Assembly: GCA_045658985.1 (NCBI GenBank)
Contig: JAZOWC010000068.1
Span: forward strand, 464 to 64,463
Origin: Oscillospiraceae bacterium
GTDB taxonomy: Bacteria; Bacillota; Clostridia; Oscillospirales; Butyricicoccaceae
Reading direction: 5' to 3'
Length of the DNA: 64,000 bases
Below the pieces are notes generated by a model. That model did no database searches. It saw only the letters and a program-made list of their open reading frames with translations, and was not told the DNA's origin. The position numbers were made by a program, and so were the translations under genes. This document shows, piece by piece, positions 22,118 to 59,925 of the stretch. Each line of letters starts with the position of its first letter. Within the stretch, counting starts at the first letter, position 1.

Positions 22118-24508
22118 TCAAAATACCAGCGACGGGCGCAGCACGCAGAAGGCGTTCTTGCCCAGAATGGAGTTCATAAGGCTTACGGCTTTTTCGGCGT
22201 TCATTATTTTTGCGCCTCCCGACGTCATATAGAGCAGTTCGCAGCCGTCAAGCACCAGATACACGCTGCAGGAGCTTCCGTCCGAGCTGCTTGAGACAAG
22301 CAGGATATCTCCGGTGAGGAGCATGGACGGCTTGAGCATCTGTATACGGTCTTTTTGATAGGACGAATTATCCACGTACCATCCGCCGTAGAGCGAGGGC
22401 ACCACGAGAGGATCGGCGCGGAGATTGAGGTACTCCCCTACTCTCGATGCCGAGAACAGACGGTCAAACAGAGCCTTCTCGTTGGTCAGGCGGATATTGT
22501 CACCCACTACCGAAGTGTATACGCTGTTGATTATCTGACCCATTGTGGCTCGGGAGCCTGTTTGCGCCCGTGCGGCTTTGTCCAAAGCCGCCATCTGCGA
22601 GGTTGTAAGGGTATTGGCAACGTAAATATCGGCGCAGTACAGCTCGATGCCGTTGACGGCAGTATATCCGCTGCCGATGCTGCTGCCCAGACCAACGTCA
22701 CCGTTGACCGTGACCGTGTAGCTGACCTCATATCTCTCGCCGGGTTCAAGCGCGGTGCTCCAGCTGAGAGTTCTGCCGCTGACCCGATCGCCGCCGCTGA
22801 CGAGAGTGGTATTGTCGGGCAGGGTCGCGGTAACAGAGATAAATCTGCTCTTGGCGGACGTGTTCTCCACGCTGACAGTATAGGACACCCTGTCACCGGG
22901 GTTGGCGCTCTTGCCCTGAGGATGGCTGGTCAGCTTCTGCGCGATGATACCCGTCATACCCGACATACGGTCGAGGGTCTTTTGGGGAATAGGAACGTGG
23001 ATGACATTGAGGGGGCGGAGGATGGCGAATCGGCCGGTTTTGGGCAGGTAGCGGCTTGAGGAGGGATTGAAGTAGGTCTCGCTCAGCTCATCATAGCGGA
23101 TGCTGCCGTTTTTTTCAAAAACCTCGCCCGAGCCGTAATTATAATTGCTGCCCGTACTGTGGACGTATCTGCCGTTGCCCACGTACATAATAATATGTCC
23201 GTTGCTCTCGTCTGCCAGACGGGTAACTATCATATCTCCGGGCAGGAGCAGGGATTTGACCCGATCGATGAGGGATTGTTTCTCCCCCTCGGTCTCGCTG
23301 CCCGTATTGTCATAATAGAACACGGTCATATCCTTGCGCTCAATAAAGTCTGCAGTATACCACGACACGATATCATAGTCAAAGGTCTCGCGGATCAGGG
23401 TGTTGATAAAGCAGGCGCAATTGGTATATACGGTGTTCTGATCGGTGGCAAGTTCGGGTGACTGCAGGCCGTGGCGGTGGCGGTACACAGCGGACATATT
23501 GCTGTGGCGCTTGACAAGACGGGTGTCGTCGTACTGTATTCGGCTGCCGCGGTTAACGTAGGCATCGGCGGTGGCAATAAGAGCGCGGGCGCCCTCCGAG
23601 TAATACTCGTCACCGCTCCAGAGGCTATCCGTGTCATCGGGCACGATGGGATCGGCAGGTGTGACGGGTATATGGGGAGGATCATCGGGTTGCCCGGGGG
23701 CAGGATCGGGGACAGCGGGCGTGGGATCGGGGACAGCGGGGGTGTCTGCAGGAGGCTGCACGGTGCCCGAACCGACTATAATGATCTCCACCGCCGCAGA
23801 TACCGTATATGCCGAGCCGCCCGTAGACTTGTCAACGCCCGTGATGCGGCAATATACAAAATAGTGGTCTCCCATCTCGTGATCGAGGGGCAGGTTCAGC
23901 GCGGATGTATCTGTCTGCTCCAGAAAGCTGCCGCCGACAGAGTCGGAGTTTGAATCTATATACCAGTCATAGGTGTATAGCGTACCCGACTGCTCCTTGA
24001 CGGCAAGCTTGAGTACGCCGCCGTTTGATGCGGAGGCGGTAAGTTTTTTGGGTATCTCGTCGATCTCAGGCGGGGTGAGAGTGATCTCCTGCCAGAGAGC
24101 AGTGATAGTCAGGTCGGATACAACGGGAGAGTCAAAGCCGTACTCCTCCCCTGCTGACGTCCATCCGCAGAAAGCATAGCCTTGGCGCACCGGATCGGAG
24201 GGTCTCTGAACCCTATCCCCCTCGGTCACCGACCGAATGAAGGCAGCATCACCGTTCTGCAGATCAAAGGTCACGGTAAACACCGACGGGACAGAAGGCT
24301 CGGGATCATCTGCTGTGGGAGGTACAGGTGTGGGATCGTCGGGCAGAGGCGGTGTGACGGGCGCGTCGGGTGTATCGGGAAGATCGGCCGAGGTCTTGTC
24401 CCCGTCTGCCGCGGGTGCCTGATGGGTATCATCGCTCGAGCAGGCGTACATAAACACAAGCAGCATACAGAGGATGATGGATATATATTTTTTGAATACT
24501 GTGCTCAT
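22118..24508 (-). CDS. 796-aa secreted lipoprotein: Pro-rich linker, Listeria-Bacteroides (InlB B-type) repeat, Ig-like module, papain-fold (NlpC/P60-like) domain, DUF11-like repeat
   Basis: Signal peptide plus lipobox (VFMYACSS). GYAFCGWTSAGEEYGFDSPVVSDLTITALW repeat. YTNCACF ... GDMIVTRLADESNGHIIMYVGNGRYVHS suggests a Cys/His hydrolase. GDRVSYTVSVENTS resembles a DUF11 repeat. Confidence 0.7.
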   Translation of the reverse strand: MSTVFKKYISIILCMLLVFMYACSSDDTHQAPAADGDKTSADLPDTPDAPVTPPLPDDPTPVPPTADDPEPSVPSVFTVTFDLQNGDAAFIRSVTEGDRVQRPSDPVRQGYAFCGWTSAGEEYGFDSPVVSDLTITALWQEITLTPPEIDEIPKKLTASASNGGVLKLAVKEQSGTLYTYDWYIDSNSDSVGGSFLEQTDTSALNLPLDHEMGDHYFVYCRITGVDKSTGGSAYTVSAAVEIIIVGSGTVQPPADTPAVPDPTPAVPDPAPGQPDDPPHIPVTPADPIVPDDTDSLWSGDEYYSEGARALIATADAYVNRGSRIQYDDTRLVKRHSNMSAVYRHRHGLQSPELATDQNTVYTNCACFINTLIRETFDYDIVSWYTADFIERKDMTVFYYDNTGSETEGEKQSLIDRVKSLLLPGDMIVTRLADESNGHIIMYVGNGRYVHSTGSNYNYGSGEVFEKNGSIRYDELSETYFNPSSSRYLPKTGRFAILRPLNVIHVPIPQKTLDRMSGMTGIIAQKLTSHPQGKSANPGDRVSYTVSVENTSAKSRFISVTATLPDNTTLVSGGDRVSGRTLSWSTALEPGERYEVSYTVTVNGDVGLGSSIGSGYTAVNGIELYCADIYVANTLTTSQMAALDKAARAQTGSRATMGQIINSVYTSVVGDNIRLTNEKALFDRLFSASRVGEYLNLRADPLVVPSLYGGWYVDNSSYQKDRIQMLKPSMLLTGDILLVSSSSDGSSCSVYLVLDGCELLYMTSGGAKIMNAEKAVSLMNSILGKNAFCVLRPSLVF

Positions 24509-24542
24509 CTGATCACTCCAAAACCGGGATTTAGATGAATAT

Positions 24543-24571
24543 ATTCTACCATAGTTAAGAGTGTATTACAA
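24543..24571 (-). promoter_or_regulatory. Candidate promoter of the 796-aa lipoprotein gene
   Basis: Minus strand reads TTGTAA, 17 nt, TAGAAT, about 35 nt upstream of the start. Confidence 0.5.
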
Positions 24572-24632: not shown

Positions 24633-27600
24633 TCAGCCGAGGATTGCCATAACTGCGGCATTCTGGATGGCAGCTGCGTCGGCAGCGCTGATGCCCTCAG
24701 GAACGTAGACCACAGTTGCGGGAGTTGCCTGGAAGATCTCTGCGTATACAGAGCAAGCCAGGAGGTAGCCGCCCTCGATATCGATGGTGTCGGAGATGCT
24801 GTTTGTGTAGGGATTGACGCCCTGTGCAAGACAAGCTTCGACAGCGGTTGCGTAGCTGATGACGATATCGGTATCGCCTGCCAGCTTCTTGGTGTTTGCC
24901 TCGATCAGATCGGCATAATCGGTTCTGTCGGAGATACCGTTATTGTTGACCTGATCACGGAAGTACTGGCTGACGGTGTTCTGTCTTGCTGCGGGAGCAA
25001 CGATCATGACCTTGGCCTTTGCATTGTTCTGCAGAGCAAGCTCGCGGACAGCCTTGGCTGCGGCGGCTTCTGCGTCGAATGCTGCGGTGTCGAACAGAAC
25101 CTTGTCCTTGCCTGCTTCGACGATGACGTAATCGTACTCAACGCCGCTGTACAGAAGCTGAGTGCTCAGTGCGGCATTCTGTGCTGCCTGCTCCAGAGAC
25201 TCGATACCGGGGATAGCCATAACGTACAGCTCCTTGCCGGTCTCCTCTGCGATTTCGGCGAGCATATCTGCAACGTCACTGTCGGTCAGAGCTGCACCTG
25301 CAAGCAGGACGTTGGTTACTGTGCGCTCCTTGTAGCTGTCGGTTACGGGAGCGGGATCGACCTTGTCCAGATCAAGTACGACCTCTGCGGCGATAGCCTG
25401 AAGCTTTGCGCCGACGGTGGGCTTGACCGAATAGTTGTCGCTCTCAAATCTCATAATGCCAACGGGGCTCTTGCCGGTGATTGCGGTATACATACAGCAG
25501 GCGATAAGATAGCTGCCCTCGTTGCTTGCGTGGTCAACACTGAGGCTGACATAGGGATCGATCTCGGTGTTGGCAATACATCTCTCAAATGCGTTTGCAA
25601 GGCTCATAACGGTCACGTCGGTTCCGACTGCGGGGAGAACCTTCTCCTTGACAAGCTTGTTGATGGCATCGGCATGCTCGGTGCGGGTGGTGATGTTTAC
25701 ATCAGCAAACTTGTACTTGGTCAGATCCTGACGGGCAAACATAACGTCCAGAACGATCTTGACGTTGGGGTTGTATGCCTTTGCCAGATCGATGATGCCC
25801 TTGAGAGCGGTGATATCGCTGTTAGCGGTAGAGCTGTGGATAACGGCGTTGTCACGGCCGACCTGCAGGACGATGACGTCAACTTCGCCATCCTGCAGCT
25901 GTGCGCGGACTTTGCTGTAGCCGTCGCCTACAAGACCGGTCTCCCAGATGTTCCATGCGCCGTTGCCGACAACAGTTCTGATCTCGGCCTCATAGCCTGC
26001 TTTTTCAAGCAGCTCACCGACATACTCGGTGGTGTCAAAGCTGTAGGATGTGCTGGAGTAGGTCATAGACAGAGAACCAACCATCAAAACGGTCAGATCG
26101 GTGTCATTGTACTCCTTGGCATTGGGTGCTACCCAATATGCGGGACGGGTGGCTTCTTTCTCGGTGAGCCACTTTGCGCGGAGGGTAAGTCCGCCGTAGG
26201 GCATCACTGCGCCGTCAAAGGAGAACTCGTTATTAAGAGCGGCATCTGTGTACCAGCCCTTGAATACGTAGCCTGCCTTGACAGGGGTCTCGGGAGCGGT
26301 GAGGGCGGTGCCCATCTCGGCTGTGACGGCCTCAATCTCGCCTGCGCCGTCGGTGTCAAAGGTTACGGTAAAGGCAGTGGCAGCCTCGACCTCGATACCG
26401 AGGACGAACTTGGTTGCCAGCTTCTGCAGTGCGATAGCTGTCTCAACGTCGACTGTTGCGTCAACGCCGCCGATGTTGGAGCCGAGAGCGCCTACGCCGA
26501 CGGGGGTCTCACCGAACATTGCAGCGTAAATAGCGCTGGCGGTCAGGTAGGAGCCCTTGGGGGTAGAACGGTTACCGACGTTTGCACGGGTGGCAACGTC
26601 ATTGGGTTCGCGGAACAGATCAGCCTTGATGACTGCTGCGTCGTCGCTGTATGCCTCAAACAGATCGGCGATAGAAACGACCACTACGTTGGCGATACCC
26701 TTGTCCTTGATGAACTGAGCCATCTCCTCTGCCTCTGCGGTGATCAGAGCGGCATGGGTCTTGTGATCGGTAACGGTAACGTTGGTGAAATCAGCAAAGT
26801 TTGCCTGATGACCGTAGGGAGCTGCGATGATGACCTTGACGTTGGGGTTCTTGTCATAGGCGATCTTTGCCAGCTTGTATGCGGAAAGGATGTTCTGGGT
26901 CTTGCTGCTCTCGCTGTTGATGGAGAAATCTCTGCCCGACTGCAGAACGATATAATCGAACTTGGTGGATGCAAAGCCGTTCTTGGTGTCGGTGCTGGAG
27001 ATGGTCATATCGGTCTCGGAGGAACGTGCGGAGGATGCGAACAGCTCATACAGATTGTATGTTGTCCATGTGGTACCGTGGGTTGCCTGAGCCTTGACGA
27101 TGTTGACGGGCTTGCCCTGACCTGCCTCGATCATCTGAACGAGTGTGTCGGTCATGTTGTAAGAGCCCATCATCATGCCGCCGAATACGTACATATTGAC
27201 AGCACCTTCTACGGTCTTGTCCTCGACCTCCTGAGGCTTCTCGGGAGTGGGATCAACGGGCTTGGGCTGAGCGGTGCCGCCGGACACCACCTGAGCAGCC
27301 AAAGCCTGAAGCTTGGCTGCTGTAGCGGCGTCAACGTTGGCGTCCCAGGTGATTTCGCCTGCGCTGTTTTTGCCTACTGTACCGGTGGTCTTGAGGCCAA
27401 CGGGGCTCTGATCGAGCATTGCGGTGAAGATACCGCAGGCTGCCAGATAGGAACCTGCAGGGTTGGAGCGGTTGCCGACGTTCTTTCTGCCGGTTTCTGC
27501 ATCGGGCTCACGGAACAGTTCAGCCTTGATGACTGCTGCGTCATCGCTGTAAGCCTCGAACAGGCTGCCCAGAGAAACGATCTCAACGTTCTTGGCATAG

Positions 27601-30600
27601 CCCTGGCTGAGGATGTAGCCTGCTACGGATGCGGCTTCCTGATCGATGTACTTGACGTGAGTCTTGTGGTTGGTCACAACGGGATTGGTCAGGTCTGCAA
27701 AGTTTGCCTGATGGCCGTAGGGAGCAACCAGAATGATCTTGACGTTGGGGTTCTTCTGAGCTGCCAGCTTGGCGATCTTGGCGGCTGCGTACTCAACCAT
27801 ACCGTCATAGGAGCTGCCCTCTACCAGAGAGAAGTCTCTGCCGGTCTGGATAAGAACGTAGTCAAAGCTGACTTCCTGAAGCTTCTGCATAGCCTTCTGT
27901 GCGGAAGAGCCGCTGCCGAAGGTCATATCGGTAGCCGAGTTACGTGCGGAAGATACGAACAGCTCCCATACGTTATAGGTAGTAGCTGTGGAAGTATGAC
28001 CCAGATATGCATCAACGTGGACTTTGACTTCCTTGCCGGTAGCTTCTTTGAGCATATTGGTCAGGGTAGCTGTTGTGCCGTAGGAGCCCATGGGATGGCC
28101 GCCGAATACAAAGATATCAACGATATCATCGGGCTCGGTGGGGACAACTGTGGGAGGAGTTACGGGGTCAGCGGGTTCGGGGGTCAGGGTGACCTTCTGG
28201 TCGGGCTTCTCGGTGGGAACCTTGCCGCCGAGGACGTAGTCTGCTGCCAGCTTCTGCAGTGCTGCAGCGGTGGTGGCGTCGACCTTGCAGTCGGTGGTGA
28301 TTCCGCCCTCTGCGTTGAGGATATCTCTGCCCAGAGTGGTCAGACCCTCGGGGCTCTTGTCAAACATTGCGGCATAGATACCTGCTGCTGCGAGGTAGGA
28401 ACCCTTGGCAGAAGCACGGTTGCCGGTGTTGCCGCGGCTGGTAACTGTGTTGGGCTCGCGGAACAGATCCTTGTAGATGTCCACAGCCTTGTCGCTGTAG
28501 CACTCAAACAGATTACCGACGGAGACGATCTCTACGTTGGCAATGCCGTCATTCTTGAGAGCCTCGTATGCACGGAATGCCTCGTAGTTGATGAACTTGA
28601 CGTGCTTTGCGTGGTTGTCGATGTTGTAGGTCTTGAAATCTTCCCAGGTTGCGGTGTGACCGTAAGGAGCAACAAGCAGAACTTTGACGTTGGGGTTCTT
28701 GGCTGCTGCCAGCTTGGCGATCTTGCGAACTGCGATGACGTTCTTGTTGTAGGAAGTGCTGCCCTCGATCAGAGAGAAGTCTCTGCCCATCTGGATAACC
28801 AGAACGTCATATGCGTTGGTTGTCAGTTCTTCGTTGACGCGCTTGCCGGTGGTGGAAGAGGAGAACTTGATCTCGTCTTCTTTGCTCTGAACGCTGCTGT
28901 CAAACAGCTCGTAGAGGTTCCATGTAGTGCTGGTGGTATTGTGTACCAGATATGCCTCTGTATCTGCAATGACTTCCTTGCCGGTGCCTTCTTTGATCAT
29001 CTCGGTCAGAGTGTTGATCATATTGTAGGAGCCGAACATGGGGCCGCCGAAAGACCATACGCGGATGCTGTCGCCGTCTGTGGAGACGGGAGCGGTAGTG
29101 TCTGCAGGCAGAGTGTAGGTGGGAGCGGGGGTCTTGTCAACAGGCTTCTCCTGAACGATACCGTCCTTGTTTGCCCATGCGCCGTAGATGGTCACGTTGC
29201 CCAGAGGCATCTTGCCGGACATAAAGCTGAAACGGGTATTGAAATCGGGATCGTAGAACCAGCCTGCAAAGAGCAGATCGCCCTTGGTGGGATCCTTGGG
29301 AGCTTCGATGACCGAGCCGGCCTCAGCGGTGATGGAAGCAACCTCGCTGCCGCCGTTGGTGTAGAAGTTCAGGGTGGACTGGGTAGAAACCGTGCCCTCA
29401 TACTCGGTGCCGAAGACGGTCTTGTGAGCGGTCTTCTGGAGCTTGAGGAGCATTGCGCCGTCTGTGACAACACCGGGAGCGTTCTGGCTGCCGCCTGCAT
29501 AACCGCTGTAGGTCATGCCAACGGGAGACTTGTCATAGATGGTGGAGTAGATGGTTGCTGCTGCCAGATATGCACCGGCCTCGCTTGCACGGTTACCGGT
29601 GTTTGCGCGGGTTGCGATAACGTTCTTCTTCTGATACAGATCGTTGGTGATGTCGTCGGGGTTATCGCTGTAGTTGAGGAATGCATCGGAAACGTATGCG
29701 ATCTTGACCTGAGAAGCAGGCAGATAGCCGCCGTTGACGATGGAGTCTCTCATTGCTTCGGCCTCGGAGTTGATGAAGGGTACGTGCTGCTCAAGGCTGC
29801 CGATGGTGTAGAAGTCGGAGAAGTTTGCGTTATGTCCGTAAGGAGCATAGATGATGAACTTGACGTCGGGGTTCATCTTGGCTGCCAGAATAGCAAACTT
29901 GGTTGCGGAGATGATGTTGTTGGTTCTGGAGTTGTCGTTCTCCATGGAGAAGTCACGACCAGACTGAATAATAACATAGTCCAGCTTCTTGGAAGTAAGA
30001 GCATCCTGCATCTTGGCTCCGTAAGAACCGAAGCTGATGGTGTTGATATCGCTTCTGGAAGAAGATTCAAACAGCTCGTAGAGGTTATAAGTGGTGGATT
30101 CACTGGAGTGGCCCAGCCATGTGATAGTGAGGTTGACCTTCTTGTTTTCTTCCTTTTCCATCATTTCGACAAGGGTCTTTTCCATGTTATAAACGCCGAT
30201 GGGGTATCCGCCGAACATCAGGACGTTCATCTCGCCGCCGGTGGGCTTGGTTACGGGATAGGTGCTGAGCTCGGTGGGATTGGGATACTTGTAAGCAGGG
30301 TCAAGATCCTTGGGATCTACGGGAGCGTCGGGATCTACCCATGTATCAACGTACTTGACGTAGCCGGATACATCGGGCAGGGTCTCGGTCTCGATACCCA
30401 GAACATGCTTTGCGGCCAGAGCCTGCAGCTTGACGCCCTTGGCAGGCTCAACGGAGAAGTTGCCTGCGTCGAAGCACATAACGCCTACGGGGCTCTCGTC
30501 AAAGATAGTTGCATACAGACCGCAGGCCATCAGGTAGCTGCCGTATACGTCTGCAAAGTCGGAAACGTCATTGCCCCAGGGGTTGATATCGGTCTCTTCG

Positions 30601-31142
30601 AGGCAAGCCTCAAACAGAGTGTTCATATCGGAGGTCAGGTAGGGCATCTTGAGCAGCTCGGACTTTTCGTCCCAGTACATCTGGATAGCCTCAGAGTGCT
30701 CCTTGCGGTTGGTGATGACGGGGTTGTGCTTTGCATAGGGATCGGTGTAGTACTTGCTGGAGGTATCCTGACGTGCGTAGGAGATCATGGGAACGACTAC
30801 GACGCCGGGGTTCATCTCCTTGCAGATGGAGTAGATGCTGTCGATAGCTGCAAAGTCGGAGTTTCTGGTGCTGGAGCTCTGTACCATACAGTAGTCACGG
30901 CCGAGCTGCATAACGATGAAGTCATAATGTCTCAGCTCGTACATAGCCTGAACGGTAAGGAAGCCGTCACCGACAAGGCCGCTCTCCCAGATGTTGTAGT
31001 TGGAGCCGACGGTCAGCTTGTCAACGGTAACGCCCTTGCCGCTGGCGCGGGCCAGAGTCTGCAGGAACAGAGCCGAGTCGTGAGCTGCGCCCTCGGTGGT
31101 GCGGTGCATAACGCCCGAACCGATCATCAGGACGGAGATGGT
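24633..31142 (-). repeat. Tandem array of about 300-350-aa protein-coding modules (A-B-B-B-B-A-A' order)
   Basis: Module starts recognisable at ISVLMIGSG, MNVLMFGGYP, IRVWSFGGPM, VDIFVFGGHP, VNMYVFGGMM, LTVLMVGSLS and VTNVLLAGAA. Divergent at the DNA level, so these are not recent duplicates. Confidence 0.7.
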
Positions 31143-31850: not shown

Positions 31851-31983
31851 ACGCTTTCTCCTTTTTTGTAATGAGTTTGCGATTGTTTTTCGTGCTTTTG
31901 GTTTGCGGGACAGTGTTTGCTGTAGGTTGTATCCGTCGGGGTATCGGGGTTCAATACCCCGACGGATGAATTGGAATCAAAAC

Positions 31984-37710: not shown

Positions 37711-37869
37711 GGTGCCTCCTTTATTTTTCTCCTAATGACGGGTAGGAGTTATATACAATCGCGAGCCGCCGTACGGTGTGCCTTACGACAAAAACAGACA
37801 ACAACTCACTATAATTGTAGTTAAAAATATAATACCATAATTAATTTTTTATTACAAGATTTTTACCAG

Positions 37870-37924
37870 TTGTACACCCCTGCCAAAATGTACAATTTGA
37901 CAGGCTTTTTTTGTGCAATTTGAC
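37870..37924. promoter_or_regulatory. Operator-like repeats upstream of the SLH giant gene
   Basis: Inverted repeat TTGTACA (37870-37876) / TGTACAA (37889-37895). Direct repeat CAATTTGAC at 37893-37901 and 37916-37924, spaced 23 bp. Located 160-215 nt upstream of the ATG. Confidence 0.35.
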
Positions 37925-37991
37925 GATAAAATCGTATGGTCAGGCTCAAAAACCCCAAAAATATTTTAAGAATTCTTAATTTTTACTTGTA

Positions 37992-38030: not shown

Positions 38031-38046
38031 ATATAATTGTTAAGAA

Positions 38047-42684: not shown

Positions 42685-42686
42685 AA

Positions 42687-44093: not shown

Positions 44094-44098
44094 AATTT

Positions 44099-45526: not shown

Positions 45527-45529
45527 AGT

Positions 45530-46939: not shown

Positions 46940-46979
46940 GGTTTGTGATCCTTTCTTTATGTACGTATCAAAGTATTAT

Positions 46980-48548: not shown

Positions 48549-48562
48549 TTTTAACTCCTGAT

Positions 48563-50125: not shown

Positions 50126-50132
50126 TATACGA

Positions 50133-51695: not shown

Positions 51696-51700
51696 AGTGA

Positions 51701-53269
51701 TTATTCCTCTCTAAGTATAATTTTTCCGTTGCGTTTGCCGTTGTGTACGGCGTTCTCTACTACTACCTCACCTGCCACAAGGACATAATTGAGTCCCTCG
51801 GCACGTTTCTGACAATCGGTAAACTCGGAGCGGTCGATAAGCTTGTCGGGATCAAAGATGCACAGATCGGCATCGAATCCGTCCCAAACGAGACCCTTGG
51901 AGCGCAGATCGTATACTGCGGCGGGCATGGCGGTCATCTTGCGGATCATCTCGGGCAGCGAGACCACGCCCTTTTCGCGGACGTATCTGCCGATGGCACG
52001 GGGGAAGGATGCTTTGAGTCTGGGGTGGTAGACAGAAGCTTTGCCTGCCACACCGCCGTCGGTGCAGATCATTGCCCTCTCGTATGCAAGAACGGTCTCA
52101 ACGTCCTCCTCGGCTATGGAGAAGTAGACGCCCGTAACCGCAAGCTCGCTGGCTATGAGGATGTCATAGACCATATCGTAGGGGTCTTTGCCCTCCATGC
52201 GGGCGATATCGTCCATACGCATACCCAGATACTGGGGATAGGCACTGCTCTTGACGAGCTGAACCCAATGGAGGTCGTTCTGCCACTTCTGACGTGCCCA
52301 CTCGGTGATCTCGGCGCGCTTTTGGGGGTCTCTCAGCTGCTCAAGCTGGGCAGCCGTGCTCTGCGCGCGGAATGCCTGAGGCAAGAAGGAGGTGTTGATG
52401 CCCGTGCTTGCTGCGTGATAGGGGTACACGTCGCAGTATATCTCCACGCCCTGCTCGTTGGCCTCCCTGAGCATACGGATGGTGTGGGTGACTTTGCCCC
52501 AGCTCTCCTCGAGGCCTGCGGCTTTGTGGTGGGACAGAACGCCGCGGGCGCCGCCTGATGCGCGGATGATGGTGATAAACTCCTTGACGGCGCGCACCAG
52601 AGTCACGCCCTCACTGCGGATATGGGCGGCGACAACCGCGTTGTACTCGCCTGCCACCTTGGCAAGCTCGATACACTCATCTGTATCGGCATAGCAGCCG
52701 GGGGTATAGATGAGTCCCAGCGACAGACCAAGCGCACCCGCCTCGATACCCTCACGCAGGAGAGCTTTCATTCTTTCAAGCTCCTCCAAAGTAGGCTTGC
52801 GGTTTTCTACGCCCATAACGGCGCGGCGGAGAGAACACTGACCCACGAGCATTGCGATATTGCTGCCCTGAGGCTTGTCTTTGGCGCAGGAGAGGAAGGT
52901 GCCCATAGTCCGGTACACCTCGTCCTCTCTGCCCACGCCGTCTATCATCTTGATCTTGCTCTCGGGAATATCGCAGCCGAAGGGTGCCTGAGATGTGCCG
53001 CACTGGCCTGCGATGGAGGTGGTTATACCCTGCTCGATCTTCTCCCGCTGATCGGGAAAGGTGAATATTGCCGAGTCATTGTGGGCGTGGGAATCTATAA
53101 AACCCGGGGTAACCACAAGTCCCTGAACGTCGATGGTTTCTTTGGCCTCGCCGCGGATGCCCTTTTTGACCTTGACGATCTTGCCGTCGCGGATGGCAAC
53201 GTCGGCAAAATATGAGGGAGAGCCGGTACCGTCGATTATTCGTCCGTTTTTGATGAGCAGGTCAAACAT
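51701..53269 (-). CDS. D-aminoacylase family amidohydrolase, paralog 3
   Basis: GFIDSHAHND, AGQCGTS, AHIRSEG, LSHHK, CTDGG. 522 aa. Confidence 0.8.
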   Translation of the reverse strand: MFDLLIKNGRIIDGTGSPSYFADVAIRDGKIVKVKKGIRGEAKETIDVQGLVVTPGFIDSHAHNDSAIFTFPDQREKIEQGITTSIAGQCGTSQAPFGCDIPESKIKMIDGVGREDEVYRTMGTFLSCAKDKPQGSNIAMLVGQCSLRRAVMGVENRKPTLEELERMKALLREGIEAGALGLSLGLIYTPGCYADTDECIELAKVAGEYNAVVAAHIRSEGVTLVRAVKEFITIIRASGGARGVLSHHKAAGLEESWGKVTHTIRMLREANEQGVEIYCDVYPYHAASTGINTSFLPQAFRAQSTAAQLEQLRDPQKRAEITEWARQKWQNDLHWVQLVKSSAYPQYLGMRMDDIARMEGKDPYDMVYDILIASELAVTGVYFSIAEEDVETVLAYERAMICTDGGVAGKASVYHPRLKASFPRAIGRYVREKGVVSLPEMIRKMTAMPAAVYDLRSKGLVWDGFDADLCIFDPDKLIDRSEFTDCQKRAEGLNYVLVAGEVVVENAVHNGKRNGKIILREE

Positions 53270-53274
53270 AATGA

Positions 53275-54840
53275 TTATTCCTCTCTAAGGATGATTTTGC
53301 CCAGACGCTTGCCGTTGTGAACAGCGTTCTCAACAACGACCTCGCCTGCCATCAGGACATAGTTGAGTCCCTCGGCACGCTTCTGGCAATCGGTAAACTC
53401 GCTGCGGTCGATGATCTTGTCGGGATCGAAGATGCACAGGTCGGCATCAAAGCCTTCCCACACCAGACCCTTGGAGCGCAGGTTGTAGACTGCGGCGGGC
53501 ATTGCGGTCATCTTGCGGATCATCTCGGGCATGGAAACCACACCCTTTTCGCGGCAGAATCTGCCCAGTGCGCGGGGGAAGGAGCCCTTGTTGCGGGGGT
53601 GGAAGACGGTTGCATTGCCTGCAACGCCGCCGTCGGTGCAGATCATTGCGCGGTCATATGCCATGACGGTGGCGATGTCTTCTTCGCAGATGGTGAAGTA
53701 GCAGGCTGTGCCGCCCATATTGTCGCTGGTGAGGATCTCAAAGACCATATCGTACTCATCTCTGCCCTCTTTTTCTGCGATCTTGTCCATACGCATACCC
53801 AGATACTGGGGATAGGAGCCGCTGCGGGCAAGCTGTACCCAGCTGAGGTCTCTGCCCCATTTTTTGAGGTTCCACTGGAGGATCTCCTCGCGCTTCTGAG
53901 GATCATTGAGCTGCTCGATCTGTGCAGCGGCGCTCTGTGCGCGGAAGGGGCCGGGCAGGAAGGTAGATGCCAGACCCGTGTGGGATGCGTGGTAGGGGTA
54001 TACGTCGCAGTAGATCTCCACGCCCTGCTCGTTGGCTTCCTTGAGCATACGGATGGTGTGGCTGACCTTGCCCCATGTCTCGTCACGGGTTGCGGCCTTG
54101 TGGTGAGACAGCACGCCTCTGGCGCCCGACTCACGGATGATGGTGATAAACTCCTTGACAGCCTTGATGAGGTAGTCGCCCTCGTCACGGATGTGTGCGG
54201 CAACAACTGCGTTGTACTCGCCTGCTACCTTGGCGATCTCGATGAGCTCGTCGGTCTCGGCATAGCAGCCGGGGGTGTAAATGAGGCCCAGCGACAGACC
54301 CAGTGCGCCTGCTTCGATGCCCTCGCGCAGGAGGGATTTCATTTTCTCAAGCTCCTCGGCGGTAGGCTTGCGGTCTGCAACGCCCATAACGGCACGGCGG
54401 AGAGAGCCGTGACCTACCAGCATGCAGACGTTGCTGCCCTGGGGGACCTTCTGTGCATTCTCGAGGAAGGAGCCCATGGTCTTGTATACGTCGCACTCGG
54501 GGCCGAAGCCCTCGATATTCTTGATCTTCTCGGCGGGAACGTCCTTGCCGTAGGGTGCCTGAGAGCCGCCGCACTGACCTGCGATGGTGGTGGTGATGCC
54601 CTGCTCGATCTTCTCGCGCTGATCGGGGAAAGAGAATATGGCAGAGTCATTGTGTCCGTGAGAATCTATAAAGCCGGGGGTTACTACCAGACCCTGTGCG
54701 TCCAGGATGTCTTTTGTGTCGCCGCGGATGCCTTTTTTGACCTTGACGATCTTTCCATCCTTGATGGCAACGTCGGCAAAATAGGAGGGAGAACCGGTAC
54801 CGTCGATAATTCTTCCGTTTTTGATAATAAGATCGTACAT
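53275..54840 (-). CDS. D-aminoacylase family amidohydrolase, paralog 2
   Basis: GFIDSHGHND, AGQCGGS, AHIRDEGD, LSHHK, CTDGG. 521 aa. Confidence 0.8.
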   Translation of the reverse strand: MYDLIIKNGRIIDGTGSPSYFADVAIKDGKIVKVKKGIRGDTKDILDAQGLVVTPGFIDSHGHNDSAIFSFPDQREKIEQGITTTIAGQCGGSQAPYGKDVPAEKIKNIEGFGPECDVYKTMGSFLENAQKVPQGSNVCMLVGHGSLRRAVMGVADRKPTAEELEKMKSLLREGIEAGALGLSLGLIYTPGCYAETDELIEIAKVAGEYNAVVAAHIRDEGDYLIKAVKEFITIIRESGARGVLSHHKAATRDETWGKVSHTIRMLKEANEQGVEIYCDVYPYHASHTGLASTFLPGPFRAQSAAAQIEQLNDPQKREEILQWNLKKWGRDLSWVQLARSGSYPQYLGMRMDKIAEKEGRDEYDMVFEILTSDNMGGTACYFTICEEDIATVMAYDRAMICTDGGVAGNATVFHPRNKGSFPRALGRFCREKGVVSMPEMIRKMTAMPAAVYNLRSKGLVWEGFDADLCIFDPDKIIDRSEFTDCQKRAEGLNYVLMAGEVVVENAVHNGKRLGKIILREE

Positions 54841-54849
54841 ATTTTCACC

Positions 54850-56391
54850 TTATGCCTTTCTGATAGGTTTGCCTGCCAGAGCGCCGTTGTACTTGTCGTG
54901 CTCGACGGTGATAACGCCGTTGACCAGCACGTATTCAACACCCACGTTGGGCTTGCCGGGTTCAACAAAAGTGGAGAGGGGGCCGTACTTGTCAGCATCG
55001 ATGATGCAGATGTCTGCGTCTCTGCCCACCTCAAGCAGACCCTTGGTGTTGAGGTCATAGACCTCGGCTGCCAGAGAGGTCATCTTGCGGATCATCTCCT
55101 CAAACTCAACAGCCTTGAGCTCTCTGACAAAACGGGATACGGCGCGGGGGAATGTGCCGTAGTTGCGGGGATGAGCGGGAGCGCGGGAAACGCTGCCGTC
55201 CGAGCCGATCATTGCATAGGGCTTGGAGATAACGTTCCGGACGTCCTCTTCGTTCATGGTGAACAGAACGCCGCGGCCGACGCACTCGTTGGCTGCCAGC
55301 ACGTCGAACAGAGTCTCAAACTCGTCCTTGCCGTACTTCTCTGCGGCTTCGTTGATGCGCAGACCGTTGAGCTCGCTCAGCTCGGTAAGGCCGCACATAA
55401 GGCACCAGGACAGGCCCTTTTCGTGCCAGGAATGATTGATAAATGTCTCCTCGATCCACTCGCGTGCTTCCTTGCGGTATTCGGGAGTCTTGAGCATTTC
55501 GGCGATCTTCTTCTTGCCCAGAGCCTGACGCTCGGGGGAGATAAAGGTTGCCCACAGGCTGGTGGAGCAAGCCTCATAGGGGTATACGTCGCACCAGATG
55601 GGTACACCCTGCTCGCGTGCTTCTTCGATCAGCTTGGTGGTGATCTTGGTGCGTCCCCAGTAGTTGGGGCCGCCTGCTGCTTTGTGGTGGGAGACAACGG
55701 TCTTGGCGCCGGTGCGGCGGGCGATCTCGATCATCTCCTCCACAGACTCGACCAGTCTGACACTCTCAGAACGGATGTGGCTGGAGATAACGCCGCCTCT
55801 TTCGCCAACGACCTTGCCGATCTCAACGATCTCGTCGGTGGTTGCGTATGCGCCGGGGGTGTAGTAGATGCCCAGGTTCATGCCCTTGGCGCCCTCGTCC
55901 ATGCACTTGGCCATGAGAGCCTTCATCTGCTCCATCTCCTCAGCGGTGGGGGCGCGGTTTGCCAGATCGCCCATAACCATATCGCGGATGGTGCTGTGGC
56001 CTGCCAGCAGAACTACGTTGCTGCCCAGACCGCTCTCCTCCAGAGCATCAAACCAATCCTTGACGGTCTTGCGCTTTTCGTAATTCTTGGCATCACACTT
56101 GCCGCAGGGAGCGTCGGAGCCGCCGCACTGGCCGCCGATGATGGTGGTAACGCCCTGAAGCACGATGTTGTCCATATCGGGCATCTCAAGCACACTGCCG
56201 TCGCCGTGGCTGTGAGAATCGATAAAACCGGGTGTTGCGGTCAGGCCGGTGGCGTCGATGATCTGCTTTGCCTCGCCCTCTACTTTGCCCATTGCGGCGA
56301 TCTTGCCGTCCTTGACAGCGATGTCGCCCTGATAGCCTTTTTTGCCGCTGCCGTCTACGATATTGGCGTTCTTAATGATAATATCAAACAT
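54850..56391 (-). CDS. D-aminoacylase family amidohydrolase, paralog 1 (most divergent)
   Basis: Start taken at the ATG at 56391 (MFDIIIKNANIVDG) with an AAAGAGG RBS. GFIDSHSHGD, GGQCGGS, SHIRSES, VSHHK, GSDGS. Confidence 0.8.
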   Translation of the reverse strand: MFDIIIKNANIVDGSGKKGYQGDIAVKDGKIAAMGKVEGEAKQIIDATGLTATPGFIDSHSHGDGSVLEMPDMDNIVLQGVTTIIGGQCGGSDAPCGKCDAKNYEKRKTVKDWFDALEESGLGSNVVLLAGHSTIRDMVMGDLANRAPTAEEMEQMKALMAKCMDEGAKGMNLGIYYTPGAYATTDEIVEIGKVVGERGGVISSHIRSESVRLVESVEEMIEIARRTGAKTVVSHHKAAGGPNYWGRTKITTKLIEEAREQGVPIWCDVYPYEACSTSLWATFISPERQALGKKKIAEMLKTPEYRKEAREWIEETFINHSWHEKGLSWCLMCGLTELSELNGLRINEAAEKYGKDEFETLFDVLAANECVGRGVLFTMNEEDVRNVISKPYAMIGSDGSVSRAPAHPRNYGTFPRAVSRFVRELKAVEFEEMIRKMTSLAAEVYDLNTKGLLEVGRDADICIIDADKYGPLSTFVEPGKPNVGVEYVLVNGVITVEHDKYNGALAGKPIRKA

Positions 56392-56437
56392 AATTTTTAC
56401 CTCTTTCAGTGATTTTTCTGTGTTTTCGGTGATTTTG

Positions 56438-56487
56438 AAAAAAGAGGACCCAAACAAACGCATTTTCCCGTTTGCCTGAATCCTCTT
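56438..56487 (-). terminator. Imperfect hairpin plus T-run between the PrpD-like gene and the first D-aminoacylase (possible attenuator)
   Basis: Minus strand reads AAGAGGA-ttcagg-CAAACG-ggaaaatg-CGTTTG-tttggg-TCCTCTTTTTTC, within the only long (104-nt) gap of the operon. Confidence 0.4.
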
Positions 56488-56495
56488 GTTTTTGT

Positions 56496-57839
56496 TTATC
56501 GGTCGGTCCAGTTTTCCTTGCGGTTTACGAGAGCAACGATGTCACGGACCTTGACGTTGAGGTCGCCCTTGAGCACTTCCATAATGTCCTTGAGAGCCTT
56601 CTCGGTCATAACAGCCTTGCTCATACGCATAAACTTCTCCTCGATCCACTCAAAGCCGAAGCCCTCGTGTGCCTCGCCTCTGGGCTCGCACAGGCCGCCT
56701 TCCAGCACGGTGCCGTCCTTGAGGGTGATGACAGCCTTGCAGCAGCGGTGCTCGGGGAACATTGCGTCGATCTCGTCGTCCTTTTCAAAGCTCAGGCGGC
56801 TCATCATCTCGATGACTCTGGGATCGCCCAGGTTCTCGTCTCTGGCCTGCTCAAAGCCGAAGTCGCCCCATACGATACCGCAGGCGGTGGGATATGCGAT
56901 GTTGTACTGGGATTCGTCGGTGGTCTTGGGAACGATCTTGGACAGACGGGTTGCCTGATAGAAGGTCTTGATGACGACTTTTTCGATATCCTGCCACTTG
57001 ATGCCGTGGTCTCTCATCAGGAATACGACGGCGTCGATTGCGGGGTGACCCCAGCGGCAGCCTGCGTAGGGTTTGAAGTACAGATCCAAGATCTCGTACT
57101 TTTTGCCCAGATCGTCGGCGTACTTCTTGTACTCCTCGCCGTCCATCAGGTGGCAGTTGGAAACGAAGCCGCACTTCTCGGAGGCCATTGCCATAGCACC
57201 GACCATAGCGCCGTAAGGAACACCGTCCTTGTTCATGGAGGGGTACTCAACACTTCTGCCGCCGGGAGCGAAGGGGCTGTTGAACTCGGCGATTGCCAGA
57301 GCGTTGTTCAGTCTCTCTCTGTCCCAGCCCTTGAGCTTGCCTGCGCCTGCTACGATACCCCAGGGTCCGAAGGAGCCGCTGGAATGGTAGTAGTTGTTGT
57401 AGTGCTCGATCATGGCGGCGCCCGAACGGATGGTGGTCTCGTAGGCGGCTACCAGAGCCTCAAGCAGCTCTTTGTATGTGCTGTCCTCTTCCCAAGCGGC
57501 GGCAAGAATACCGCTGATGAATGCTGTACCGGGATGAGCACGGATGATCTTGTGTCCGTCGTCAAGGTCGTAGGCGTTGGAGGAGTGACCCATGGCGGTG
57601 GTTGCACCGTAGTAGTTGAAGGTCTCCTGAATGCCGATTACGGGGATATCGCCCTTGCCGAACATTTCTTTTGCAGTCTTGACGCCTGCATCGAACTGTG
57701 CGCTGTGGCTGCCCAGGATCAGAGCATTCAGCAGGTCGGCAAAGCACATCTTTGCTCTCTCCTGAACCTTCTCGGGCAGGTTCTCCCATTTGAGGTTGAT
57801 GATAAAGTCCTCAAACTTGTAGTCTCTCGAATAAATCAT
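56496..57839 (-). CDS. MmgE/PrpD-family protein (2-methylcitrate dehydratase superfamily, function not assignable)
   Basis: 447 aa. The N-terminal pattern ...LPEKVQERAKMCFADLLNALILGS... and HSSNAYDLDDGH... are typical of MmgE/PrpD. GGAGAG RBS. Confidence 0.75.
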   Translation of the reverse strand: MIYSRDYKFEDFIINLKWENLPEKVQERAKMCFADLLNALILGSHSAQFDAGVKTAKEMFGKGDIPVIGIQETFNYYGATTAMGHSSNAYDLDDGHKIIRAHPGTAFISGILAAAWEEDSTYKELLEALVAAYETTIRSGAAMIEHYNNYYHSSGSFGPWGIVAGAGKLKGWDRERLNNALAIAEFNSPFAPGGRSVEYPSMNKDGVPYGAMVGAMAMASEKCGFVSNCHLMDGEEYKKYADDLGKKYEILDLYFKPYAGCRWGHPAIDAVVFLMRDHGIKWQDIEKVVIKTFYQATRLSKIVPKTTDESQYNIAYPTACGIVWGDFGFEQARDENLGDPRVIEMMSRLSFEKDDEIDAMFPEHRCCKAVITLKDGTVLEGGLCEPRGEAHEGFGFEWIEEKFMRMSKAVMTEKALKDIMEVLKGDLNVKVRDIVALVNRKENWTDR

Positions 57840-57888
57840 TATGTTTCTCTCCTCACATAATAATAGTTTTTATTTACATCTGCCATTG

Positions 57889-57918
57889 ATTTTACCATAA
57901 TACCGCCTTCAATTGCAA
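57889..57918 (-). promoter_or_regulatory. Candidate promoter of the amidohydrolase operon
   Basis: Minus strand reads TTGCAA, 18 nt, TGgTAAAAT (extended -10), about 50 nt upstream of the PrpD-like ATG. Confidence 0.5.
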
Positions 57919-57962
57919 GCCTTTTAGATATTATATTTACTTATATTTAATATAGCGTACGA

Positions 57963-57992
57963 TTGACTTTGGCGGGAGATTTATAGTATAAT
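57963..57992 (+). promoter_or_regulatory. Candidate divergent promoter of the EamA transporter pair
   Basis: TTGACT, 18 nt, TATAAT, about 40 nt upstream of the ATG at 58034. Confidence 0.5.
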
Positions 57993-58033
57993 GGTCTGCA
58001 GAAAAACTTCAGTCTCTGTGCGAGGTGTGTTAT

Positions 58034-58954
58034 ATGAATATGAAAACTCTCCGTGCCAATCTGCTTCTGGTGCTCACCGCCGCTTTGTGGGGTGCCGCAT
58101 TCGTAGCCCAGAGCACGGCTATGGACGCTATCGGCCCCTTTACCTTCAACGGTGTGCGTATGCTCATCGGCTCTCTGGTGCTTCTGCCCCTCATCTGGGT
58201 GATGAACCTGCTTGACCGCAAAAAGCCCGAGTACAAGCCTATGAAGAAAGCCGATTGGAAACTGCTGATCACCGGCGGCGTGCTCTGCGGCATCGCACTG
58301 TTTTTTGCAAGCACATTCCAGAACTACGGCATCATCTACACCACCGCAGGCAAGGCAGGCTTTATTACCACCATCTACGTTGTGCTGGTACCCATTCTTG
58401 CTCTGGTGTTCCTCAGACAGAAATCCCACTGGCTCACCTGGATCTACGCCGCGATAGCCATGGTCGGCTTCTATCTGCTGGCGCTGGGCGGCGGATTCGG
58501 CAACATCAACAAGGGCGACCTTCTGGTGCTGGTATGTGCCGTACTGTTCGCCGTACATATCCTCATCATCGACCGCTATTCCCCCCACGTTAACGGCGTT
58601 GCCCTGTCCAGCATACAGTTCTTTGTATGTGCTGTGCTGTCGCTGATAGCTGCGCTGGTTATGGAGGATATTTCTTTTGCTGATATAACCCGCGCCGCAG
58701 TACCCATTCTGTATGCGGGTATATGCTCCTGCGGCATTGCCTACACACTGCAGGTAATAGCACAGAAGGACACCGACCCCACGGTAGCTGCCCTGCTGAT
58801 GAGTCTGGAGAGCGTGTTCTCGGTGCTCTTTGGCTGGCTGATCCTCCACGAAAAACTGACCGTGAGCGAATATGCAGGCTGTGCCGTGGTATTCCTCGCC
58901 GTAGTGCTCAGCCAGATCCCTCCCGAAAAACTCAAGCTGAAAAAGAACAAATAA
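58034..58954 (+). CDS. EamA/DMT-family transporter 1
   Basis: 10-TM pattern. LTAALWGAAFVAQ and the duplicated EamA halves. GAGGTG RBS 6 nt before the ATG at 58034. Confidence 0.8.
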   Translation: MNMKTLRANLLLVLTAALWGAAFVAQSTAMDAIGPFTFNGVRMLIGSLVLLPLIWVMNLLDRKKPEYKPMKKADWKLLITGGVLCGIALFFASTFQNYGIIYTTAGKAGFITTIYVVLVPILALVFLRQKSHWLTWIYAAIAMVGFYLLALGGGFGNINKGDLLVLVCAVLFAVHILIIDRYSPHVNGVALSSIQFFVCAVLSLIAALVMEDISFADITRAAVPILYAGICSCGIAYTLQVIAQKDTDPTVAALLMSLESVFSVLFGWLILHEKLTVSEYAGCAVVFLAVVLSQIPPEKLKLKKNK

Positions 58955-59004
58955 TCTATCTGTGAAAGCTCCGTATCTGGAGCTTTCGCCTTAATCGGAG
59001 ATAT

Positions 59005-59925
59005 ATGAACAAACGTAAACTGACAGGAAACCTCATGCTGCTGGTTGCCGCTGCCGTATGGGGCGGCGGATATATCGCCAACGATGCGGCAATACAGCAT
59101 ATCGGCGTATTCACCTATGAGATGCTGCGTATGTTTCTGGGCGGGCTTCTGCTCCTCCCCCTGTGCATAGCTCTGCGCTCAAAGGAGAAAAAACGCGCCG
59201 CCTCGGAATCTCTCGCGGCCGAACCCATCCCATTCAAGCTGCTTTTTGCAGGCGGCGTTCTCTGCGGCGTGGCGCTGGTGTTTGCCTCGGCTCTGCAGGG
59301 CTTCGGCCTGCTCTACACCACCCCCGGCAAAGGCTCCTTTATAGCCGCGCTGTATATCGTCATAGTGCCCATTATCACGTCGACCCTCCACCGCAAAGCG
59401 CCCGGAATATTTATATGGCTGGGCGTTGCGGCGGCGCTGGGCGGATTTGCTCTGCTGTCTCTCAGCGGTGAAGAGGGCGGCATCAACAAGGGCGACCTGA
59501 TCATGCTGGCCTGCGCCGCGGTGTACTCGGTGCAGATATGTCTGCTGGAGCATTTTTCTCCAAAGGTCAACGGCGTGTTTCTGGCCTGCGTGGAGTTTTT
59601 TACCGCATCGCTGACGGCACTGGTGCTGGCGCTGATATTCGACGATATTTCCATCGCCACCATTGCTCGGGCGGCTCTCCCTCTGCTCTATTCGGCCGTG
59701 ATATCCTGCTGCATAGGCTTTACCCTGCAGTCGGTGGCGCTGCGCATGACCGACGCGTCGGTAGGCTCGCTGATAATGAGCCTTGAGAGCGTGTTTGCCC
59801 TGCTTTTTTCCTGGCTGATAACAAGCGAAACTCTGCTCCTGCGCGAGTACATGGGCTGTGCGCTGGTGTTTGCCGCCGTTATCCTGTCCCAGCTGCCTTC
59901 ACCAAAGCTAAGCAGGCGCAACTGA
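59005..59925 (+). CDS. EamA/DMT-family transporter 2
   Basis: Paralog of the preceding gene (LLVAAAVWGGGYIAND...). 306 aa. Confidence 0.8.
   Translation: MNKRKLTGNLMLLVAAAVWGGGYIANDAAIQHIGVFTYEMLRMFLGGLLLLPLCIALRSKEKKRAASESLAAEPIPFKLLFAGGVLCGVALVFASALQGFGLLYTTPGKGSFIAALYIVIVPIITSTLHRKAPGIFIWLGVAAALGGFALLSLSGEEGGINKGDLIMLACAAVYSVQICLLEHFSPKVNGVFLACVEFFTASLTALVLALIFDDISIATIARAALPLLYSAVISCCIGFTLQSVALRMTDASVGSLIMSLESVFALLFSWLITSETLLLREYMGCALVFAAVILSQLPSPKLSRRN

Follow-up and report, generated by a model that had tools for sequence, protein, structure and literature searches.

Enzymes of the D-aminoacylase family are known chiefly as biocatalysts, and their physiological role is poorly understood. 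Orphan oligopeptide-binding lipoproteins that share one Opp translocator are exemplified by AmiA/AliA/AliB of Streptococcus pneumoniae and OppA1-5 of Borrelia. Described loci for the use of murein peptides include dppA-E and ykfABCD of Bacillus subtilis and ykfBC-oppA of Bacillus cereus, the latter with a secreted NlpC/P60 enzyme (PMC2954226); MppA is the known example of an orphan binding protein served by a borrowed OppBCDF (PMC3173086). The locus considered here lies in a stretch of 64,000 nucleotides from an Oscillospiraceae bacterium (contig JAZOWC010000068.1; hereafter "the window"), in which an NlpC/P60 lipoprotein, two giant surface proteins, an OppA-type binding protein, an operon of amidohydrolases and two EamA transporters are encoded side by side. 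An earlier note on this DNA had read these genes as one system for the capture, uptake and intracellular hydrolysis of D-amino-acid or N-acyl peptides, and this single-locus model follows the same logic as the murein loci of B. subtilis, B. cereus and Escherichia coli (MppA/OppBCDF with MpaA, YcjG and PepD): a peptide-type binding protein, an NlpC/P60 endopeptidase, D-specific hydrolases and a stereoinverting enzyme.

We conclude, with a probability of roughly 60%, that the region is a mosaic, in which at least three modules are inherited and transcribed separately, rather than one pipeline. The modules would be set in a conserved backbone of an uncultured ruminant-gut Clostridia bacterium that extends from SecA to DUF1846, RlmL and an M42 array. 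Module A (40280-59925) would consist of the EamA pair and a divergent 12-gene cytoplasmic operon, whose enzymes may act on small N-acyl-amino acids or dipeptides after their import and free the C-terminal residue; the targets are probably D-configured or otherwise unusual residues, with the paralogues diversified by side chain. More speculatively, the PrpD-like enzyme of this operon might invert or rearrange a released product of the C4-dicarboxylate type, and the EamA pair might export the product or import the substrate. Module B (24633-39897), which holds the binding protein and the two giants, would be an insertion/deletion cassette in the backbone; its binding protein is probably one of many orphan paralogues feeding a shared Opp translocator encoded elsewhere, and may supply module A with substrates. 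Module C (22118-24508) would be an NlpC/P60 backbone gene, kept next to DUF1846 with or without module B and most simply explained as the organism's own cell-wall hydrolase. The tight packing of the window would then reflect the presence of cassette B combined with the loss of a 2.2-kb segment carrying SIS, TIM and YjbQ genes.

Linkage and transcription of the modules

Relatives were collected with the binding protein, the PrpD-like protein and the C-terminal part of the NlpC/P60 protein as anchors, and homologues of window genes were mapped on the resulting loci by tblastn. The window reads SecA, two EamA genes, the operon (six amidohydrolases, three PepV-like and two M20D genes), the binding protein, two giants, NlpC/P60 and DUF1846. 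In RGIG2138, a goat colon metagenome-assembled genome (MAG) whose binding protein is 87% identical, an amidohydrolase, three PepV-like genes and two M20D genes are followed by SIS (-), TIM-like and YjbQ genes, and only then by the binding protein and two giants. A single 124-kb contig comprising loci L087 and L093 (PrpD 91%, SecA ~83% and NlpC 43% identical to the window) carries SecA, three binding-protein paralogues, YitT, two EamA genes, PrpD, four amidohydrolases and one PepV-like gene, and continues through SIS, TIM, YjbQ, NlpC and DUF1846 to RlmL and, farther along, to the Met-gamma-lyase gene and the M42 array; the backbone is as in the window, with neither binding protein nor giant between operon and NlpC. 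In RGIG3513 (L010; binding protein 52% identical), Fe-ADH, flavodoxin, AKR, HD, FMN reductase and cytochrome b genes precede SIS, TIM, the binding protein, an SLH giant of 2309 aa and a second giant, and no amidohydrolase, M20 or PrpD homologue is found in the 6.9 kb upstream of SIS.

Because relatives carry A and C without B, B without A at this site, or A and B split by three unrelated genes, the three modules are separable. The independent presence and absence of the blocks in L087/L093, RGIG3513 and RGIG2138 goes against the one coherent capture-uptake-hydrolysis locus first proposed, and is the very pattern that the earlier note had named as grounds for its refutation. DNA alignment further places ~70 bp of the window (40140-40210) opposite 2.2 kb of RGIG2138 (L009 7546-9747) that contain SIS, TIM and YjbQ, a segment that in three related genomes lies between operon and binding protein or between operon and NlpC; the adjacency of operon and binding protein in the window therefore results from a recent 2.2-kb deletion. 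What is conserved is the core of PrpD, amidohydrolase array and PepV-like genes, with EamA nearby and a copy number that varies by lineage: six amidohydrolases, three PepV-like and two M20D genes in the window, four amidohydrolases and one PepV-like gene in L087, and three and one in L098 (PrpD 69% identical), where one EamA gene follows the core at a distance of ~2.6 kb. The binding protein and the giants occur together in three genomes.

Open reading frame (ORF) listing and profile searches of the window confirmed the gene contents at their expected coordinates, and bore out the gene list, the order and the minus-strand placement of the first four units as initially described. The minus strand comprises five independent transcription units, of which the 12-gene run is one. 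Strong hairpins (z = -3.2 to -8.3 against shuffles) lie 3' of the operon, the binding protein, both giants and NlpC, each followed by a U-tract except the one behind the SLH giant. The intrinsic terminator of the operon (40233-40262, -) lies 18 nt past the last M20D gene and has a 13-bp stem with 8 GC pairs and a U-tract (-36.4 kcal/mol, z = -8.3); the binding-protein terminator (~37990-38020, -) and that of the NlpC gene (within 22011-22117, -) likewise combine a hairpin with a U-tract. The space between the two giant genes (31851-31983, -) holds a perfect 16-bp hairpin, CCGUCGGGGUAUUGAACCCCGAUACCCCGACGG, without a U-tract (z = -5.5 against shuffles). The earlier note was right that every unit is served by a promoter and a terminator of its own, which in itself speaks against a single regulon. 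The six upstream regions have no word of 11 nt or longer in common, their shared 9- and 10-mers fall within the shuffle range, and an Rfam scan of 22-60 kb detected neither riboswitch nor leader.

Several points weigh against the mosaic, or against the substrates proposed for module A. The pattern of presence and absence rests on four or five related genomes, and these are draft MAG contigs, in which absence applies to the site concerned rather than to the whole genome. Their close relatedness could also mask, through shared gene order, a functional association that is real but loose: paralogues of the binding protein recur near module A, the binding protein and the giants co-occur, and A and B may cooperate. 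Among distant NlpC homologues, one of the NlpC/DUF7927 type is abutted by a SASA gene (sialate O-acetylesterase, SGNH superfamily; L096, 9233-11821) and a second has an Amidohydro_3 gene at a distance of 2.6 kb. Both cases hint weakly that NlpC may be associated with esterases or amidohydrolases, and the SASA gene is the only hint of an NlpC-esterase association found outside the window's lineage. The D-specificity of the six amidohydrolases, finally, is assumed from family membership, and all six appear to have Phe at the position of Arg295, the D-Glu-selecting residue of Bb3285. The alignment is uncertain at this position, to which it was extended, HMMER stopping two residues earlier, and the substitution argues weakly, if anything, against specificity for acidic D-residues.

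The amidohydrolase operon and its divergent transporters

The operon (40280-57839, -), delimited by ORFs, Pfam and NCBIfam profiles, opens with an MmgE/PrpD-family gene (56496-57839), followed by six Amidohydro_3 paralogues of ~520 aa each (46980-56463), three PepV/Sapep-like M20 dipeptidase paralogues (45530-46939, 44099-45526 and 42687-44105) and two M20D amidohydrolase paralogues (41491-42693 and 40280-41473). The six amidohydrolases are 40-78% identical to one another and show full-length similarity to solved proteins of the D-aminoacylase family over a range of E=1e-80 to 1e-67, including the N-acyl-D-Glu deacylase Bb3285 (PDB 3gip, E=1e-80) and the D-aminoacylase of A. faecalis (1m7j, E=4e-75). 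Aligned to these two structures, the metal ligands (HxH, the bridging Cys, two His and Asp) do not vary among the six copies, and neither do the motifs DSHxHxD, GQCG, (A/S)H(I/M)R, SH(L/H)K and (T/S)D(S/G)G; at the alpha-carboxylate site HPR is likewise universal, with YPY in five copies and YPF in the remaining one. These motifs correspond to the metal and alpha-carboxylate sites of the D-aminoacylase family (PMC12149444). The proteins pass the Pfam Amidohydro_3 model, but this model is superfamily-wide, and scores of 208 and 204 bits miss the 340-bit cutoff of NCBIfam PRK09061. A signal peptide was found in none of the six.

The most variable region among the paralogues is the mobile alpha/beta domain. 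The amidohydrolases encoded directly after PrpD in the different genomes are orthologues of one another, with 57-58% identity between genomes. The others form within-genome pairs of 73%, 78% and 82% identity and do not exceed 60% between genomes, though PrpD is 91% and SecA 83% identical over the same comparison. The higher identity within than between genomes points to repeated lineage-specific duplication accompanied by fast divergence.

The M20 enzymes fall into two groups. Of the PepV/Sapep-like proteins, that encoded at 44099-45526 passes TIGR01887 (223 bits, cutoff 208) and that at 45530-46939 falls just short (202 bits); the nearest solved structure is Sapep of Staphylococcus aureus (3khx, E=1e-30), with a likeness to PepV. 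The third copy (42687-44105) is interrupted by one in-frame change of TAC to TAA (43767-43769, codon 113 of the upstream ORF 43767-44105); it is otherwise intact and end-to-end 85% identical to an uninterrupted RGIG2138 orthologue that has TAC. A frameshifted pseudogene was considered and ruled out by this lone in-frame change, and the interruption marks the gene as a pseudogene of very recent origin, unless it is an error of sequencing. The M20D pair (73% identical to each other) scores 181 and 177 bits against TIGR01891 (cutoff 154), and is closest among solved structures to human Xaa-Arg dipeptidase (8xzc, E=1e-51) and S. aureus HmrA (3ram, E=4e-46).

The two EamA (DMT-family) membrane transporter genes (58025-58954 and 59005-59925, +) are 45% identical to each other (Pfam EamA, E=3e-43 and 1.7e-29). 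They diverge from the operon over a shared control region of 185 bp (57840-58024), an arrangement that the earlier note had recognised correctly. This region carries promoter-like sites in both directions: TTGACT-18-TATAAT toward EamA (57963-57992, +) and TTGCAA-18-TAAAAT with a TG element toward the operon (57918-57889, -). Both hexamer pairs are kept in an alignment with four related loci, in which neither a further conserved element nor an obvious palindrome was seen. The EamA pair also adjoins PrpD divergently in L005, L011 and L087, and in L005 and L087 YitT adjoins the EamA-PrpD cluster as well.

The PrpD-like protein contains both family domains (MmgE_PrpD_N and _C, E=2.5e-35 and 6e-31), and its nearest solved relative is iminodisuccinate (IDS) epimerase (PDB 2hp0/2hp3, E=7e-19). 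Residues D91, H102, Y147, H152 and K256 align with D88, H99, Y145, H150 and K266 of that enzyme, while two ligands are substituted (H85 to N88 and K198 to R195). His99 and Tyr145 are the pair proposed for two-base stereoinversion in IDS epimerase (residue list in PMC12290011). All known substrates of the family are C4 1,4-dicarboxylates with a substituent at C2 or C3, and stereoinversions account for two of its four known reactions (PMC12290011). PrpD homologues of 55-62% identity (L089, L090 and L091) occur beside LysR, a YitT or Na/H-antiporter-type transporter and an AlaDh_PNT dehydrogenase, in one case together with a PF00144 beta-lactamase-family gene; no amidohydrolases lie beside them. 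This cassette is widespread, and it may point to the real substrate of the PrpD-like protein.

An alternative, which we consider unlikely but not negligible, is that module A serves ordinary peptide nutrition in an organism that ferments peptides and amino acids. The many OppA paralogues, the four M42 and five M20 enzymes and the six amidohydrolases would then be dipeptidases, aminoacylases and binding proteins of general use, which handle L-peptides and N-acetyl-L/D-amino acids derived from feed and microbial protein and have no particular part in D-residue or cell-wall metabolism. Peptidase arrays are habitual in this genome, the M20 paralogues resemble the general dipeptidases Sapep, PepV and Xaa-Arg dipeptidase, and the relatives of the binding protein are generic oligopeptide binders; the Phe at the D-Glu-selecting position of Bb3285, uncertain as its alignment is, would agree with this view. 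However, the six amidohydrolases are without exception of the Cys-bridged D-aminoacylase subtype, whose characterised members are D-stereospecific or act on N-acetyl-glucosaminic acid. A PrpD-family lead gene would be unexpected for plain digestion, and distant operons of the binding-protein family include genes for an M55 D-aminopeptidase or beta-lactamase-like proteins.

The modular reading could also be taken further, at a probability that we judge low. Module A would then be a dedicated salvage system of gut Clostridia for small D-amino-acid amides, in which D-aminoacylases duplicate to suit individual D-residues, the PrpD-family protein acts as a cofactor-independent racemase or epimerase on a released 2-amino-C4-dicarboxylate (e.g., D-Asp) or an N-substituted derivative of it, and an array of orphan OppA proteins performs the capture. 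Such a racemase or epimerase activity would add a new type of reaction to the PrpD family.

Binding protein, giant surface proteins and the NlpC/P60 lipoprotein

The binding protein (38047-39897, -; 616 aa) is encoded by a monocistronic gene, matches SBP_bac_5 in Pfam (E=1e-46) and has a lipobox-like AFAGC. Among solved structures it comes closest to 5kzt, PrgZ and OppA, and the hits at E<=1e-5 do not include MppA. The MppA-like label initially attached to it is accordingly not specifically supported, the closest solved relatives being Gram-positive proteins of the OppA/PrgZ type. A tblastn search with OppB, OppC, OppD and OppF gave no hit anywhere in the window, and no permease or ATPase gene lies within 10 kb of any homologue at least 36% identical, all of which are orphans. 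An ABC permease at 10-17 kb of the window was considered and ruled out; the genes there (10381-17243, +) are four M42 aminopeptidase paralogues (11923-16013), an array also present in the relative L093, between a Mur-ligase-like and a Met-gamma-lyase-like (PF06838) gene.

Orphan copies are numerous: RGIG2138 has at least seven and RGIG2162 at least 11, and some copies form tandem runs of two to four; the loci of this expanded clade are L009-L031 and L040 (RGIG2138, RGIG2162, RGIG3513, RGIG7229 and Oscillospiraceae SRP315200_co2_206). Genomes of the RGIG2162 type have three or four paralogues between secA and EamA, beside EamA-PrpD. Whether these are true orthologues of the window's binding protein was considered and rejected, as they are 43-49% identical to it, against 83-84% for SecA and 93% for PrpD. 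Homologues of 35% identity or less nearly all precede a canonical OppBCDF, and in six such loci an Amidohydro_3 homologue, ~34% identical to the window paralogues, lies downstream of OppF. Further genes join individual loci of this kind: an M55 (DppA-type) D-aminopeptidase and a LysR regulator in L032, a class-A beta-lactamase-like gene and an M20 gene in L055, and in L035 an AstE/AspA-family deacylase between OppF and the amidohydrolase, with a second amidohydrolase after it. The proposed tie between binding protein and amidohydrolases therefore survives in part: it recurs with this clade in other architectures. We consider this association, and the theme of D- or otherwise unusual amides, plausible; by family resemblance, there may also be a specificity for cell-wall material or D-peptides. 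At one further locus (L073), a binding-protein homologue is surrounded by M20D, two Amidohydro_1, an octopine/nopaline-type dehydrogenase, M20, AlaDh_PNT and Amidohydro_3 genes; the product of the last is 55-59% identical to window paralogues 1-5 and 43% to the sixth (Amh6). This gene set hints at an opine-like metabolism of N-carboxyalkyl amino acids.

The two giants share a module of ~270 aa, identified by repeat map and alignment, which is present in seven copies in the lipoprotein of 2405 aa (24633-31850, -) and in three in the SLH-anchored surface protein of 1908 aa (31984-37710, -; aa 575-830, 1152-1418 and ~1625-1908). In Pfam the larger protein, which also has an Ig-like domain, matches Flg_new three times as well as Lipase_GDSL_2 and DUF4886, the latter two in its last modules. 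The smaller matches only SLH, twice, with DUF4886 below threshold (E=2e-4), and is 41% identical to the larger over 259 aa. Single degenerate modules gave only sub-threshold DUF4886 matches in Pfam, and a search of solved structures with a profile of the ten repeats returned nothing significant. An AlphaFold model of module 6 of the larger giant (pLDDT, the predicted local confidence, 82) best matches the DUF4886 structure 4i8i (TM-score 0.72; Foldseek E=4e-8), followed by GDSL lipases, carbohydrate esterases and, lower down, the peptidoglycan O-acetylesterase Ape1. By sequence alignment, six of the ten modules have Gly-Gly at the position of the GDS Ser and, where the block-V DxxH His would be expected, a conserved G-N-R-(A/S); a Ser occurs near its canonical place in three modules and the His in one. 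The SGNH label given earlier to these proteins holds for the fold, as modelled for module 6, and fails for the catalytic Ser and His, which are missing in most modules; DUF4886 is itself without known activity (PMC9487903). The GG/GNR modules suggest a conserved non-catalytic, possibly anion-binding, use of the SGNH fold. Because most of the modules appear non-catalytic, binding or adhesion is the more likely role of the giants, which would have no more than one or two esterase sites.

The NlpC/P60 lipoprotein (22118-24508, -; 796 aa) combines Flg_new, an NLPC_P60 domain (27.7 bits, cutoff 23) and DUF11/DUF7927, and its hydrophobic N-terminus runs up to YAC|SSD. Among 23 homologues Cys364 and His438 do not vary and His450 is kept in at least 90%, and by this conserved triad the protein looks active. 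With the 2405-aa giant it shares an N-terminal Flg_new/Ig module, at 31% identity. The YkfC-type signature of a gamma-D-Glu-diamino-acid endopeptidase, which combines SH3b with acidic residues, is lacking, in that the Pfam scan of the protein found no SH3b, the accessory domains being Flg_new, Ig-like and DUF11/DUF7927. Homologues of 32-35% identity occur among unrelated genes: Trk potassium uptake, EutH and SASA, or glycogen phosphorylase and RF3.

The features of modules B and C bear most directly on the single pipeline for harvesting cell-wall or lipopeptide material, in which NlpC would cut gamma-D-Glu stem peptides at the surface, the giants would de-O-acetylate peptidoglycan, an MppA-like protein would import the products, and D-aminoacylases and M20 enzymes would finish the degradation in the cytoplasm. 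The required enzyme classes are present, the NlpC triad and the amidohydrolase motifs are intact, the SGNH module counts Ape1 among its matches in fold, and the binding-protein clade is tied elsewhere to D-stereospecific peptidase families; a precedent exists in B. cereus, where a secreted YkfC is encoded beside oppA and an epimerase for murein-peptide use (PMC2954226). Nevertheless, the blocks are independent in relatives, with NlpC present also where the binding protein or giants are not, and the five transcription units have no common motif. Six of ten SGNH modules are without Ser and His and their best fold match is to an uncharacterised family, the binding protein is not specifically MppA-like, and the locus has no permease. 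Searches of the genes between 20526 and 62762 with Pfam and NCBIfam further identified no L-Ala-D/L-Glu (enolase-type, YkfB/YcjG) epimerase, LD-carboxypeptidase or MpaA family member. We therefore regard a single pipeline as improbable.

It is more improbable still that module A acts on non-peptide amides, de-N-acetylating amino-sugar acids or acidic N-acetylated metabolites before the PrpD-like protein processes a dicarboxylate-like product: the strong match to OngB, a carbohydrate de-N-acetylase of the D-aminoacylase family (9kb1 and 9kb3, E ~1e-68), the restriction of known PrpD-family substrates to C4-dicarboxylate derivatives rather than amino acids (PMC12290011) and the carbohydrate-esterase-type fold of the neighbouring giants are set against five M20 dipeptidase/aminoacylase genes in the same operon, a peptide-type binding-protein clade, and the absence, both within the operon and next to it, of genes for a sugar kinase, dehydratase or aldolase.

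Neighbouring features and comparison with known systems

The region is flanked by secA (60045-62762, +) and, beyond the NlpC gene, by a DUF1846 gene (20526-22010, -), both identified in the ORF and profile searches. Elsewhere in the window, RNase P RNA (10099-10436, -), a Gut-1 sRNA (8492-8568, -) and two tRNAs (8757-8966, -) lie beside a phage-type integrase gene (4641-5387, -), and GC content dips to 37-41% at 2-6 kb; the region 2000-10436 looks like an integrated element beside tRNA genes.

The window also offers a caution, in that adjacency, shared strand and suggestive domains arose here through backbone synteny, an indel cassette and a recent 2.2-kb deletion, and not through functional coupling. 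Two leads are worth keeping, one being the D-aminoacylase operon with its expanding gene set and the other the giants with their pseudo-SGNH modules. The operon, a conserved unit in which three to six diverged D-aminoacylase copies follow a PrpD-like gene and are accompanied by M20 and EamA genes, provides a natural context in which to search for the real substrates of these enzymes, and the ruminant-gut setting is one in which bacterial cell-wall turnover would supply D-amino acids. The giants, composed mostly of SGNH modules without catalytic residues, are a lead on pseudo-enzyme domains as surface binding modules. The individual proteins are new members of known families; a description of the operon combining PrpD, a D-aminoacylase array and PepV was not found in the literature, a weak negative.

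Compared with the murein-peptide loci, the region has no permease, its NlpC protein has no SH3b domain, its binding protein is not close to MppA, and its components are separate transcription units that are not co-inherited. As with AmiA/AliA/AliB and OppA1-5, many SBP_bac_5 lipoprotein paralogues occur without an adjacent permease, and the sharing of a translocator would be a further likeness. The giants match the fold of the SGNH superfamily, DUF4886 (4i8i) and multi-domain carbohydrate esterases, but differ in carrying seven and three modules per protein, six of which have neither Ser nor His. Relative to characterised enzymes of the D-aminoacylase family, the amidohydrolases keep HxH, the bridging Cys, two His, Asp and HPR, whereas six diverged tandem copies are found here in one operon, with ~40 additional residues in the mobile alpha/beta domain and, in an uncertain alignment, Phe at the Arg295/Leu298 specificity position. 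The PrpD-like protein has both domains, the His/Tyr pair and most carboxylate ligands in common with the MmgE/PrpD isomerases (IDS epimerase, 2hp0, and the (S)-(R)-methylsuccinate isomerase), but is related to them only distantly (E=7e-19), with two ligands replaced; and while known members of that family sit among genes of the itaconate or IDS pathways, its genomic partner here is an amidohydrolase array.

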